A stretch of 6,676 bases of DNA from Octopus sinensis (lineage: Eukaryota). The notes beneath the pieces are model-generated. The model was not told the origin of the DNA. It worked only from the letters and a program-made list of their open reading frames with translations, and did not search any database. Positions within the stretch are counted from its first letter, which is position 1. Each line of letters opens with the position of its first letter. The stretch spans positions 1 to 6,676 of the forward strand of contig NW_021829354.1 of assembly GCF_006345805.1 (NCBI RefSeq), in the 5' to 3' direction. Shown in pieces: positions 262 through 5,250 of the stretch. Position numbers and translations under genes: made by a program.

Positions 262-307
262 AACACAACGTTTCGGCTGATATACCCTCCAGCCTTCAGC
301 AGGTGTC
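262..307 (-). ncRNA. Minimal type I hammerhead ribozyme motif (A6C core variant, extra A after A9), probably in a Penelope-derived short repeat (about 185-355)
   Basis: Minus strand reads GACAC CUGCUGA A GGCUG-gagggtatat-CAGCC GAAA CG UU^GUGUU. Stem I is GACAC/GUGUU, stem II is GGCUG/CAGCC, and stem III is the palindrome AACGUU. Predicted cleavage between 267 and 266. Confidence 0.75.
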
Positions 308-353
308 TTGGGGAAATTTCAAACCTGAGTTCTCATTCCTATGGTATTTTTCG

Positions 354-590
354 ATGTTGTTGTTGTTGTTGTTGTTGTTGTTGTTGTTGTTGTTGCTGCT
401 GCTGCTGCTGTTGTTGTTGTTGTTGTTGTTGCTGCTGCTGCTGCTGTTGTTGTTGTTGTTGTTGTTGTTGTTGTTGTTGTTGTTGCTGCTGCTGCTGCTG
501 TTGTTGTTGTTGTTGTTGTTTTATTGTTGTTGTTGTTGTTGTTGTTGCTGCTGCTGCTGCTGCTGTTGTTGTTGTTGTTGTTGTTGTTGT
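354..590. repeat. Compound (GTT)n/(GCT)5-6 trinucleotide microsatellite
   Basis: Direct reading; GCT blocks at 395-409, 431-445, 485-499 and 547-564. Confidence 0.98.
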
Positions 591-592
591 TA

Positions 593-1600
593 TTTTCATT
601 TTCATTTTCATATTATTTAGTTTCAGCTCACGAGCTGTGGCCATGCTAGGGCACCGCCATTCGGTGTTGCTACGTGATTTTACTTCACAAATGCTTTTTA
701 GCAATTGACACTTGGTGCATGAGAGAGTTTGATGCAGCTGCCCTCATCTGCACCTCTTGCCGTGAAGTTGGTTCATCTGGGACACCTGACAGGAAGAGGT
801 CCAGCTTTATTTTAAAGACATCTGCATCCACCCCGTGCAGGTCTCTCAGGTCCTTCGGGAGGATATTGAAGAGCCCAGGCTATCACAGTATCTTGTCCTA
901 CTTCTTGATGGCAAATTTGGAGTCCTTGGCACTATGCAGTGGCGCCCAGTTCTAGTATTTGTGTAACTCTCGATGCCAAAGTTTGGGACAAATCCTTCCA
1001 GGATCTTCCAGATGTATATTATGGCATATCTTTCTCGCCTACGCTCTAAGGAATAGATTCTTAATCTCTTGAGTCTTTCCCAATAGCTTATATGATGCAC
1101 AGAGGCTATCTTCTTCGTGTAGCTTCGTTGGATCGCCTCAAGTTCTGTGATTAATTTGACACTGATTGGTGACCATAGCTGAGAGCAATAATCAAAGTGG
1201 CTTAGGACAAGTGTCCTCCAGAGGACCATCATGATTTCCTGGTCTCTTGTTCTAAAAGCTCTAAGAATCCATCCGGTCAGCCGCCTACATTTCATTGCCA
1301 ATTTAGCAACATGCACATGAAAGGTTGCATCATTACCCATGTAAATACCCAGGTCTCGCACTGATTGTGCCTCTGGGATTGCAATCCCTCTAGGTCCAGT
1401 GTATTTATTGAGTATTGCATTTAATTTTGCATGCTGATAGCATAAAGCTTGAAACTTTTCAGCATTGAACTGCATGCTTTTCTTTTCAGCCCACTTGTAT
1501 ATTTTGTCCAGCTCACATTGCAGGTGCATATGTCTTCAGGGATCTGTATTACCTGTGAAACTTTTGTATCATCTGCATAACTTGTGATCGTGGCTCTCTG
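593..1600 (-). mobile_element. 5'-truncated non-LTR retrotransposon (CR1/L2-like LINE) with 3' UTR and (TGAAAA)3 tail
   Basis: RT C-terminal half on the minus strand, stop at 685-687, short 3' UTR with a hairpin at 624-637, and a (TTTTCA)3 tail at 593-610. The 5' end is truncated at about 1600, just upstream of YADD. Confidence 0.9.
685..1600 (-). pseudogene. Disrupted LINE ORF2 reverse transcriptase (C-terminal part)
   Basis: RATITSYADDTKVSQ (YADD at 1579-1568), a frameshift near 1530, then ORF 1529-846 (VRDLGI, DYCSQLWSP, LEAIQR, SYWERLKRLRIYSLERRRER, typical of CR1/L2-group ORF2). A second frameshift/deletion near 874 leads into LFNILPKDLRDLHGVDADVFKIKLDLFLSGVPDEP...KKHL*. Confidence 0.9.
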
Positions 1601-1640
1601 ATCATCATCATCATCGTCGTCGTCGTCGTCGTCATCATTA
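1601..1640. repeat. (ATC)n/(GTC)n microsatellite at the LINE 5' junction
   Basis: Direct reading. Confidence 0.9.
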
Positions 1641-1719
1641 TTATTTTAAAGACATCTGCATCCACCCCATGCAGGTCTCTCAGGTCCTTCGGGAGGATAT
1701 TGAAGAGCCCAGGCTATCA
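1641..1719. repeat. 79-bp direct duplication of LINE segment 807-885
   Basis: 78/79 identical; the single difference is G835 versus A1669. Confidence 0.97.
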
Positions 1720-1989
1720 TCAATATTATTATCATTATTATTTTTATTTTTATTATTATTATTATTATTATTATTATTATTATTATTATTATTATTATTA
1801 TGATCAAGATTATGATTATGATTATGATTATTATTATTATTATTATTATTATTATTATTATTATTATTATTATTATTATTATTATTATGATCAAGATCAT
1901 GATTATGATTATTATTATTTTTATTATTATATTATTATTATTATTATTATTATATTATTATTATTATTATTGTTATTATTATTATTATT
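1720..1989. repeat. (ATT)n microsatellite with a duplicated TATGATCAAGAT interruption
   Basis: Direct reading; interruptions at about 1799-1830 and 1886-1910. Confidence 0.97.
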
Positions 1990-2084
1990 GCGGCTGAAGA
2001 GAGCTTTAAACCATCTTTTATATCAATAATACACTGCTGTAATAACAGATTGTTTATAAAGCTTGAAACACGTGTACCGTGATA
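1986..2084 (+). ncRNA. Type I hammerhead ribozyme motif with canonical core and long stem II
   Basis: Stem I UAUUGCGG (1986-1993)/CCGUGAUA (2077-2084); core CUGAAGA (1994-2000); stem II GAGCUUU/AAAGCUU extended by AAACCAUCU/AGAUUGUUU; GAAA (2065-2068); palindromic stem III ACACGUGU; GUA cleavage triplet, cut after 2076. Confidence 0.85.
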
Positions 2085-2537
2085 TCCTTTGTGTTTTGCT
2101 TTTAATTTATATTTGATATATTCTCTCACCTCTGCCACTATCTGGCATATACAGGTGCTTACACTTATCAAGTATTCACTCTAAATTTACAGTACCTATA
2201 TATATATATATATATAATCTGTGTAATAACCTTATGGTGTGCTTTCTAAAGCTTCTCTCTGGGTATCAGATGCCTAATGTTATCATATTGTAGGACTTCT
2301 GTTATTGCATATACATGTGGAAATCTGCATATATCCGTAGAGTATAAACAGTGCTTTCGCTCAGGTCACCTAAGTATGCTCATGCGTACAGTTGTTGTTG
2401 AATCATATTAATACAATATTGCGTATATATATATATATGCATACATTCAAAAATTAACAGCTGATTATGAGGCGTTGAAACAGTTGTAGTGAGTTGCAAT
2501 AAAACCTGTTCAATCCATCTTTCTCATACTACAATTT

Positions 2538-2971: not shown

Positions 2972-3014
2972 GTCCCTGATGATATTCTTCCATGAGTTTC
3001 CAGAAACGCTGGAC
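2972..3014 (+). ncRNA. Degenerate minimal hammerhead-like motif
   Basis: GUCC CUGAUGA (2976-2982) ...20 nt... GAAA CG CU GGAC. Stem I GUCC/GGAC and both core boxes are in correct register, but stem II pairs poorly and U16.1 is C. Confidence 0.45.
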
Positions 3015-3404
3015 AAGTCAATTTCGAAATTGACATCGAAAAGAAATATACTTTATAGCATTTCTAGCCGTAAACTTGTAAATTGTTGTAACATTCACAT
3101 GGCACACAGATTCCCTTCGATTCGAGGCCATTAAGATACATTTCGAAGGTTGTTTTTTCAACTCTATAGCATGAGTGAACTACGAAATACCTGTCGTACA
3201 AGAGAGACAATGGAAGCTTTTAAACATTTAAGACATGAGACAAACTGTTATGTCATATATTTCTGTATTATCATTTGTGGAAGATATTAAGCCCGTGATC
3301 GGCAGCTGCTACAAAATGTTATCTAACAATGATCTTCTGTGGCCTCATGTTTGACAGAAACAATGTATGATGTCATCATTGAGAAGGACCGCTCTGAAAC
3401 TAAC

Positions 3405-4100
3405 GTACATACATACATATACATACATACGTACATACATACATACATACATAAATACATACATGTGTGTGTTTATATATACATATATACCTATACATAT
3501 AAACATATATATGTATACATACAGGCATGCATATATGTATATATATTTAGGTACACATGTATATACATACACATATACACATGCGTATATATGTGTGTGT
3601 GTATGTGTGTATACATATACATATATATTGATACACATATTTATATGCATGCACATACATATATATACGCATGAATGTATGCATGTATGTATATATATAT
3701 ATGCATATATATATTACCCTTTTTATTTGCATATATATATATACATATGTATATATTTTTGTATGTAACCATGCATGTATGTATATATATATATATATAT
3801 ATATATATATATATATATATATATATATATATATATATATATATATAATATATATATATATATATATATATACATATATATGTATATATATACATACACA
3901 TATATATACGTTTGTTCCATATATACAGAGATATAGATATATATATATGTACATATATATATATATATATATGTTTACGTATATATACAAACACTCAACC
4001 ACAAACACACTCACATAAAACACACATAGGTACACACACACGCACACATGCACACACACAAACACACACTCACATTCACACGCGCATACAGACACAGACA
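3405..4100. repeat. Long compound (TA)n/(TACA)n/(CA)n simple-repeat tract
   Basis: Direct reading; pure (TA)n at about 3782-3872. Confidence 0.97.
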
Positions 4101-4225
4101 CATTGTGATTTTCAGTATATACATTTGTGAAAGACTCGCTTCCAAAGCTTCCTGCGTATGCAAACATAACATAACATATGTCCAACATTAAATACCAAGA
4201 TAGAAAATTATTTTTAAAAATTGAT

Positions 4226-4603
4226 GCGGCGAGCTGGCAGAAACGTTAGCACGCCGGGTGAAATGATTAACAGTATTTCATCTGCCGTTACGTTCTGAGT
4301 TCAAATTCCGCCGAGTTCGACTTTGCCTTTCATCCTTTCAGGGTCGATAAATTAAGTACCAGTTGTCTGTCCTTGATTGTCCTCTCTGTGTTTAGCCCCT
4401 TGTGGGTAGTAAAGAAATAGGCATTTCGTCTGCCGCTACGTTCTGAGTTCAAATTCCGCCGAGGTCGACTTTGCCTTTCATCCTTTCAGGGTCGATAAAT
4501 TAAATACCAGTTACGCACTGGGGTCGATATAATCGACTTAATCCGTTTGTCTATCCTTGTTTGTCCTCTCTGTGTTTAGCCCTTTGTGGGCAGTAAAGAA
4601 ATA
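4226..4603 (+). mobile_element. tRNA-derived SINE with internally duplicated body and 18-bp flanking direct repeat (probable TSD)
   Basis: A-box-like TGGCAGAAACGTTAG (4235-4249) and B-box GTTCAAATTCC (4299-4309). The body is repeated (about 4273-4420 and 4421-4603). AGAAAATTATTTTTAAAA occurs at 4202-4219 and 4604-4621. Confidence 0.88.
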
Positions 4604-4771
4604 AGAAAATTATTTTTAAAATCTTTTTGAGTTTGTTTATCCATTGAAAATCATGATTCAAAACGTTTAATCCTTCAAAATGTGTGAGAAAGTCATTCAT
4701 GAAGAAATACATCGAAACCTAGAATTTCTTGAAGGATATAAGGAATATAGATTTGTAATATTTATTGTATT

Positions 4772-4990
4772 TATTTATCTTTTATCTTTTGCCTGTTTCA
4801 GTCATCAGACTGCGGCCATGCTGGCACAACACTTTAAAGGTTTTTGCTCGAAGGAATCGATCCCAGTACCTTTTTCTAAGAGGATCAGGTAGTCACGGAT
4901 AATTACGATATGTAATTACACCAACACTGGTTGTCACGCGGTGGCCGGGAACAAACACACATACACGCGCGTGCACACACACACACACAC
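4772..4990 (-). mobile_element. 3' half of a SINE, same family as 2538-2795, in inverted orientation
   Basis: TCTTTTATCTTTT tail, hairpin CAGTC-atca-GACTG (4799-4812), CCAACACTGGTTGTCA..CGGTGG..GGGACAAACACA, then (CA)n. Confidence 0.8.
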
Positions 4991-5214
4991 TTGATCATGT
5001 TCAGCTATAAACTTTAAACCTTCTCCTATCAAGAAATATGCAGAATGTGTTTGTGTCTCTTTCTGATTATTTTAAAACTAAATTTGAAAAAGCTACTCAT
5101 TCTTTTTGAATAACCCTGTATATATATATATATATATATATATATATATATATAGGGATGGTTTACGAAAAAAACAAAAGACGAAGACAGGTGGTGTACA
5201 AAACAACCAGATGT

Positions 5215-5250
5215 CTTTTACGTTTCGAGCTTACGCTCTTCTACAGAAAG
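5215..5250 (-). ncRNA. Minimal type I hammerhead ribozyme motif (A6U core variant, extra A after A9) in a short repeat (about 5154-5262) flanked by microsatellites
   Basis: Minus strand reads CUUU CUGUAGA A GAGC-GUAA-GCUC GAAA CG UA^AAAG. Stem I is CUUU/AAAG, stem II is capped by a GNRA loop, and stem III is the palindrome ACGU. Predicted cleavage between 5219 and 5218. Confidence 0.75.

Follow-up and report, generated by a model that had tools for sequence, protein, structure and literature searches.

Hammerhead motifs in the window

The stretch analysed here, hereafter the window, comprises 6,676 nucleotides (nt) of the Octopus sinensis genome (contig NW_021829354.1, positions 1 to 6,676, forward strand) and harbours three well-formed minimal hammerhead ribozyme motifs of type I, HH1 to HH3, which an initial annotation had ascribed to several families of short non-coding mobile elements associated with microsatellites. 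Each of the three is the 3′ end of a 5′-truncated Penelope-like element (PLE), whose reverse transcriptase (RT) and GIY-YIG gene lies upstream in other copies. The three families are designated F1 to F3. HH1 (262–307, minus strand, predicted cleavage after 267) sits in the 3′ end, or pseudo-long terminal repeat (pLTR), of a Penelope/Poseidon-type PLE at 181–354 (minus), which includes a terminal tail of 30–40 nt. This F1 copy is broken off at an internal simple repeat and therefore lacks the tRNA-like head of the family; the place of the internal (AAT)n of F1 is taken by an (AAC/AGC)n tract (355–591, minus), which may also be the tail of an adjoining long interspersed nuclear element (LINE). 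HH2 (1986–2084, plus strand, predicted cleavage after 2076) belongs to F2, a Hydra-clade PLE whose 3′ end occupies 1988–2196 (plus). An (ATT)n tract (1724–1989, plus) marks the 5′ truncation point of this copy, where unique sequence continues upstream in other F2 members, and the (TA)n target site (2197–2216, no strand) follows its 3′ end. HH3 (5215–5250, minus, predicted cleavage after 5219) is a hammerhead-like motif with a family-wide U at core position 6 (U6). It lies in F3, the 5′-truncated 3′ end of a Neptune-type PLE (5155–5262, minus) that has lost about 30 nt internally after stem I and is flanked by its (TA)n target site on the 3′ side (5119–5154, no strand) and, at the 5′ junction, by an (AC)n(AT)n tract (5263–5331, no strand). 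All three window copies are most likely inert remnants.

The folds were assessed with a strict-core descriptor and with a relaxed one in which core position 6 was free. The strict descriptor returns a single match, at 1994–2079 (plus); freeing position 6 adds 264–302 (minus) and 5216–5246 (minus). Set against these three, the non-repeat sequence, dinucleotide-shuffled 1000 times, yields 0.006 matches per window: the motifs are real and lie above chance. HH1 consists of a 5-bp stem I, a core at 302–296, an inserted A, a 5-bp stem II and a loopless ACGU stem III; its core reads CUG-C-UGA, an A6C change private to this copy. HH2 combines a canonical core (1994–2000) with a long stem II closed by a G-U pair and a palindromic ACACGUGU stem III. 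In HH3 the core (5246–5240) is CUG-U-AGA, followed by an inserted A, a 4-bp stem II with a tetraloop and a loopless ACGU stem III. Stems I and II and a palindromic stem III are present in all three. The type I folds of the initial annotation thus hold in shape and position, albeit two with a base other than A at position 6; of the features it described as common, the loopless or palindromic stem III holds, whereas the core is not intact in all three, given A6C in the window copy of HH1 and U6 in HH3. Default co-folding of the window copies of HH1 and HH2 produces a stem-III dimer. Searched against Rfam at E ≤ 10, the window matches no hammerhead family.

A fourth motif, HH4 (2972–3014, plus), had been regarded as a decayed hammerhead. 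CUGAUGA, GAAAC and a 4-bp stem I are there, but position 16.1 is C, no stem II is in register and the combination of stems seen in HH1–HH3 is absent. A descriptor fitted after the fact to the features that are present matches 1 of 2000 shuffles, and a family search retrieved only HH4 itself genome-wide and nothing in 1.45 Mb of genomic loci. HH4 may be an old relic: it is single-copy and unconfirmed. Two further statements of the initial annotation are borne out: no PLE open reading frame (ORF) is found within the window by tblastn, and a simple repeat lies within about 50 nt on the 5′ side of each good motif (48, ∼0 and 13 nt away), in a window where 25% of non-repeat positions are at most 50 nt from such a repeat.

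Copy number and coding partners

The genome searched amounts to 2.72 Gb, from which 52 evenly spaced 10-kb stretches (520 kb) served as a sample. At first look, DNA searches returned 1499 candidates for HH1, 1010 for HH2 and 1369 for HH3. The sample contains five copies of F1, 13 of F3 and none of F2 or HH4, which extrapolates to ∼26,000 F1 and ∼68,000 F3 copies genome-wide, with a wide error. Descriptor matches in the sample number 19 (five from one tandem repeat) versus 0–2 in five shuffles. Across the genome, a pattern with A at position 6 (A6) has 14,407 matches (control 476) and one with U6 has 21,172 (control 253), the two patterns using slightly different spacer ranges. Multi-copy, hammerhead-bearing mobile sequences of PLE type, as surmised originally, are indeed present; the notion that they form stand-alone non-coding families fails, as each of F1 to F3 joins a PLE ORF upstream in longer genomic copies. 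Separately, a tandem repeat with a period of ∼490 nt at two loci (L208, L224) has a CUG-C-CGA core that the relaxed descriptor accepts; it is either a chance match or another variant.

In F1, RT and GIY-YIG reading frames lie directly upstream in L021 and L014, and the ORF reaches 551 amino acids in L110. Its domains were assigned by reading motifs, and it has no linker finger; Pfam returned no match for the ORF, a PDB sequence search returned none and NCBIfam gave weak RT matches only. A search with the F1 protein yielded 9196 candidates. Among the best 30 RT-anchored loci, one of which is the query's own, a sense-oriented F1 hammerhead region lies downstream of the RT in 16, an inverted piece of F1 lies upstream in 16, and three have neither. 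The order of the element is ORF stop, tRNA-like segment, (AAT)n, hammerhead and tail: since (AAT)n stands between the tRNA-like segment and the hammerhead, the 5′ microsatellite is part of F1. The 3′ end lies in a simple repeat in just one of 64 copies, and the terminal tail is present in 28 of these. Position 6 is A in 115 of 121 aligned copies, and the core CUGANGA/GAAA/UH is intact in the F1 family, the window copy with A6C apart, and in F2.

Walking upstream from the F2 hammerhead leads, ∼2.4 kb away, to a degenerate thumb, a linker and a GIY-YIG domain in which CxxC and CxH stand around the E and N residues; the linker finger is CxCX5C in L197 and CxCX4C in L194. This matches the Hydra definition in section 11 of PMC8557442; of the coding region the walk covered the part from the thumb to GIY-YIG, stopping short of the RT core. 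(TA)4 is found near the 3′ end in 22 of 30 copies, compared with a background of 9%, and the 5′ ends are spread out. A long Asn-rich insert separates thumb and linker in L194 (4700–5400). In L154/L196 a Neptune-like ORF lies near F2, but it ends at (TA)n, with other repeats after it, and was rejected as the partner.

F3 is preceded by RT, a CX4CxxC linker and GIY-YIG in L139/L198 and L123/L199, the Pfam GIY-YIG match being weak (E 0.0024, below the cut-off). The family was sampled through 90 copies anchored outside the motif, the first 90 of 100 listed on C1 (four skipped); 18 lack the motif, leaving n = 72. The 3′ end bears (TA)4 in 50 of the 72 (background 9%) and the 5′ junction a simple repeat in 38 (background 14%), which together indicate insertion into (TA)n. 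The 5′ ends are spread out, and ten copies extend beyond the 240 nt examined. The tie to microsatellites that had been proposed accordingly holds for F2 and F3, with the 3′ (TA)n as target rather than the 5′ tract, and not for F1, whose 5′ repeat is internal. One locus (L077, 850–1650, oriented) presents head-to-tail F3 units of about 200–230 nt with short (TA)n in between, a retrozyme-like array that would suit a test of cleavage as a dimer. At another (L198/L280), a near full-length Neptune copy is preceded by a partial terminal repeat starting ∼2 nt 3′ of the predicted cut. Among the 18 motif-less copies, four begin at most 2 nt from that cut; TA microhomology confounds this and they were not counted as cleavage-derived ends.

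A fixed U6 core in F3

U6 is found in 69 of the 72 F3 copies, which were chosen regardless of the core, and CUG-U-N-GA is the family-wide core; one of the three A calls at this position lies in a 5′-truncated flank. F3 is hammerhead-like rather than a canonical minimal hammerhead. Exact matches to a 22-mer that lies downstream of position 7 number 15,467, and in only 491 of them is CTG followed by a non-U at position 6; the first 100 of these comprise 68 C, 23 A and 9 G, a mutation-like spectrum. Two other positions vary freely: N7 is T in 34, A in 15, G in 12 and C in 11, and H17 is A in 44, T in 28 and never G. The remaining core and stem II columns have one base in at least 87% of copies. 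On a tree of 70 copies built solely from sequence 3′ of the motif, N7 changes 9 times against 33.4 in shuffled data and H17 9 times against 21.4 (0/500 shuffles each), so that the change is at subfamily level. The other core columns change sporadically, and G5, G8, G12, A13, A14 and U16.1 persist across subfamilies. Subfamily change confined to N7 and H17 is the pattern to be expected of a constrained hammerhead fold, as distinct from covariation.

Five loci (L233, L095, L236, L150, L121) hold a sister family whose stem II arms match those of F3, whose core has A6 and whose loop measures 3 nt. Because families with the same arms and A6 exist, U6 is probably the derived state. The tetraloop of loop 2 and a UGUG 5′ of stem I are conserved across F3 subfamilies; that they form a tertiary contact offsetting U6 is speculation. 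A contig from a sequencing run labelled as another organism (X19) matches the U6 core without difference, and a metagenome pattern scan for the U6 motif gave 0 matches.

The tRNA-like head of F1 and its deletions at the predicted cut

Directly behind the F1 stop codon, 19 of 30 loci carry a tRNA-like segment with A and B boxes, which were identified by eye from their general consensus. The B-box anchor has 4,056 exact matches; of 90 copies used from the first 100, 40 start at −6 to +9 of the first base of the segment, 37 inside it and 13 further upstream, some of the last being fold-back junctions. This pile-up suggests a transcription start like that of a short interspersed nuclear element (SINE), although a hairpin at the same place could equally stall RT. 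Rfam and default ARAGORN call no tRNA in the head (ARAGORN 0/12 loci). Relaxed ARAGORN settings gave inconsistent calls on both strands and were discarded, and the lack of TTTT was set aside as too weak an argument for RNA polymerase III (Pol III), TTTT being present in 11 of 71 copies.

Small deletions gather at the predicted cleavage site of F1: of 123 copies that span the hammerhead, 24 have lost 1–5 nt starting at most 4 nt 5′ of the cut, and these cases make up 24 of the 39 small deletions within 134 nt. They require 19 changes on the tree (shuffled mean 22.1; 14/500 as low) and are mostly independent of each other. The commonest deletion would fit a 2-nt microhomology jump across the predicted cut, and the deletions may have arisen by repair across it. 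Several observations weigh against such a cleavage-scar origin: the sequence at the site is GT-rich and quasi-repetitive, a few of the deletion loci are duplicates or inverted partners, and corresponding deletions are found in only one of 68 F3 copies and none of 20 F2 copies.

Origin of the motifs and alternative explanations

With a probability of roughly 0.85, the window motifs represent hammerheads from the 3′ terminal repeats of three unrelated PLE families, likely left behind by the elements' own RT stopping early, and the Neptune U6 motif is likely still working, probably slowly and as a dimer. The association of hammerheads with PLE ends is already published, and the system proposed in the initial annotation is very probably this known arrangement viewed through truncated copies. 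PLEs are described as nicking DNA with GIY-YIG and copying from the 3′ end by RT, with 5′ truncation, inversion and, in Neptune and Hydra, a (TA)n bias (available parts of PMC8557442), and the minimal hammerheads of their pLTRs cleave in dimeric form, with weak activity (PMC4209133; review PMC6765202, both available in part). F2 and F3 would insert by target-primed reverse transcription at (TA)n, the RT of the element copying from the 3′ end and stopping early to give 5′-truncated copies. In tandem or read-through transcripts two palindromic stems III would pair into a dimer, and cleavage would trim the precursor RNA; short F1 copies may be transcribed by Pol III.

A number of points tell against this account. 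Clade assignments were read from motifs rather than from a tree, and the loci examined include no intact full-length F2 or F3 element. Default co-folding gave no stem-III dimer for HH3, for another F3 copy (L293) or for an F1 copy (L002); the F3 stems are invariant (n = 72) and thus display no covariation, and the predicted F3 cut is no deletion hot spot. From the literature available in part, changes in the CUGA turn lead to low activity (PMC9901934), a natural A6C ribozyme has kobs < 0.1/min (PMC3088659) and eight of nine assayed Xenopus dimers did not cleave (bioRxiv 10.64898/2026.07.22.740005).

The F3 motif might instead be catalytically dead or nearly so and kept as a structural signal, for instance for RT or endonuclease binding or RNA stability, its loss of cleavage having been neutral or even helpful to expansion. 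The reduced activity of published A6 variants fits this, as do the scarcity of cut-site deletions in F3 (1/68, against 24/123 in F1) and two remarks of Craig et al. 2021 (PMC8557442, available in part): PLEs proliferate well without hammerheads, and hammerheads may be parasites of PLEs. On the other hand, the restriction of subfamily change to N7 and H17, the positions that catalysis leaves free, with the six other core bases persisting, argues against a dead motif, and a deletion signature needs microhomology that the F3 site may not offer. The idea is a serious contender, somewhat short of an even chance. Slightly less probable is that the short copies, instead of being dead truncations, propagate themselves as non-autonomous elements, whether retrozymes or SINEs, with PLE enzymes mobilising them. 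The pile-up of F1 5′ ends at the start of the tRNA-like segment, with few further upstream, the L077 array and the published vertebrate cases (bioRxiv 10.64898/2026.07.22.740005, available in part) speak for it; the spread 5′ ends of F2 and F3 and the longer F3 copies, the hairpin that could stall RT or seed inversions, the missing tRNA calls and the absence of a tRNA-like head or tandem partner from all three window copies speak against it. The non-autonomous behaviour supposed at the outset is plausible for subsets only, namely F1 copies starting at the tRNA-like head and the F3 array.

That the unrelated hammerheads and microsatellites act together as a functional cluster is very improbable. 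Three motifs in 6.7 kb do exceed a uniform rate (0.18 expected, P about 0.001), but their stems III and strands differ and all are on truncated copies; simple repeats make up 24.6% of the window compared with ∼10% in the sampled stretches (slightly different TRF settings), two families target (TA)n, and L248, the sole such case among the 52 stretches, likewise holds three unrelated motifs in 10 kb. The cluster is an ordinary pile-up in a repeat-rich, (TA)n-rich stretch.

A bolder combination is unlikely, though well above the functional cluster: that the Neptune A6U family, the commonest in the sample, is functional and missed by CUGANGA descriptors, that a Penelope element captured a tRNA-type Pol III promoter and spawned a hammerhead SINE, and that the F1 deletions record cleavage in vivo. 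Hammerheads of PLEs cleave poorly in vitro, and some PLE clades lack them. The A6 and U6 sister families, alike in their stem II arms, constitute a natural experiment in which the U6 family has been hugely successful. That the commonest family has U6, where hammerheads almost always have A, would mean a predicted working variant or motifs that need not cut RNA. Should U6 prove able to cleave, both the consensus for catalysis and every census built on descriptors would be too narrow, U6 matches here outnumbering A6 ones; should it prove unable, a fold kept under constraint without cutting would imply a structural role. Were the F1 deletions repair scars, cleavage in vivo could be read from sequence alone, in any genome.

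Relation to described elements

The window motifs resemble the minimal hammerheads of metazoan PLE pLTRs in the available parts of Cervera and De la Pena 2014 (PMC4209133): these are type I with an extra base between 9 and 10.1 and a palindromic or loopless stem III, and form several unrelated families per genome in thousands of mostly single, truncated copies. In contrast to F3, the consensus there is CUGANGAH, with U3-A8 as the only core variant in those parts, and the accessible rows of the Fig. S3 alignment include no U6 and no cephalopod. With the endonuclease-bearing PLE clades in the available text of PMC8557442, F1–F3 share a C-terminal GIY-YIG, 5′ truncation, inverted copies and a tail of 30–40 nt; the linkers correspond as well (CX2-5CxxC in F3 and Neptune, CxCX5C in F2 and Hydra, no finger in F1), as does the (TA)n preference. 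F2 differs from Hydra-1_Obim, which has another hammerhead, and the supplement of PMC8557442 does not contain the stem III motif of F2; the ∼2.4-kb 3′ region and the Asn-rich insert set it apart from Hydra in that work. Neither the U6 core nor the tRNA-like segment appears in the accessible text of PMC8557442.

Animal retrozymes are derived from PLE pLTRs (bioRxiv 10.64898/2026.07.22.740005, available in part), and non-LTR retrozymes (also Cervera and De la Pena 2020, PMC7229834, in part) share with F1–F3 short pLTR-derived hammerhead units and, in L077, a tandem array; the window copies are solitary truncated ends without tandem units and hence are not retrozymes. The available parts of both sources do not cover cephalopods. 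Like the SINE-like Sm-alpha and Sj-alpha of Schistosoma (PMC6765202, in part), F1 has a putative Pol III-type promoter followed by a hammerhead, but its tRNA-like segment lies inside the 3′ untranslated region of an ORF-bearing PLE. A natural change at position 6 is also known from phage Bcep176 (A6C; Perreault et al. 2011, PMC3088659, in part), which is a single low-activity phage sequence, whereas A6U in F3 is fixed in tens of thousands of copies. F1–F3 are not described in the accessible portions of PMC7229834, PMC10085705, PMC13282606 and PMC6962438. A fixed U6 core, a tRNA-like head in an ORF-bearing PLE and cut-site deletions were not found in the searchable literature, which excluded Dfam, Repbase and Lunse et al. 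2017; the last may hold these variants.

Other repeats in the window

Directly upstream of the repeat tract of the F1 copy lies a fragment at 600–1590 (minus), which we take to be the 3′ part of a LINE RT gene, CR1/L2-like by its motifs. It contains a 229-amino-acid open frame (846–1535), for which a Pfam search gave no match. Part of this LINE is present as a 79-nt direct duplicate (99%) at 807–885 and 1641–1719, between (ATC)n and (ATT)n tracts. High-copy SINE-like repeats, presumably akin to octopus SINEs, occupy 2540–2790, 4218–4620, 4790–4950 and 5330–5760; they show a partial tandem duplication at 4275–4603 and internal repeats of 65–79 nt at 5511–5757.

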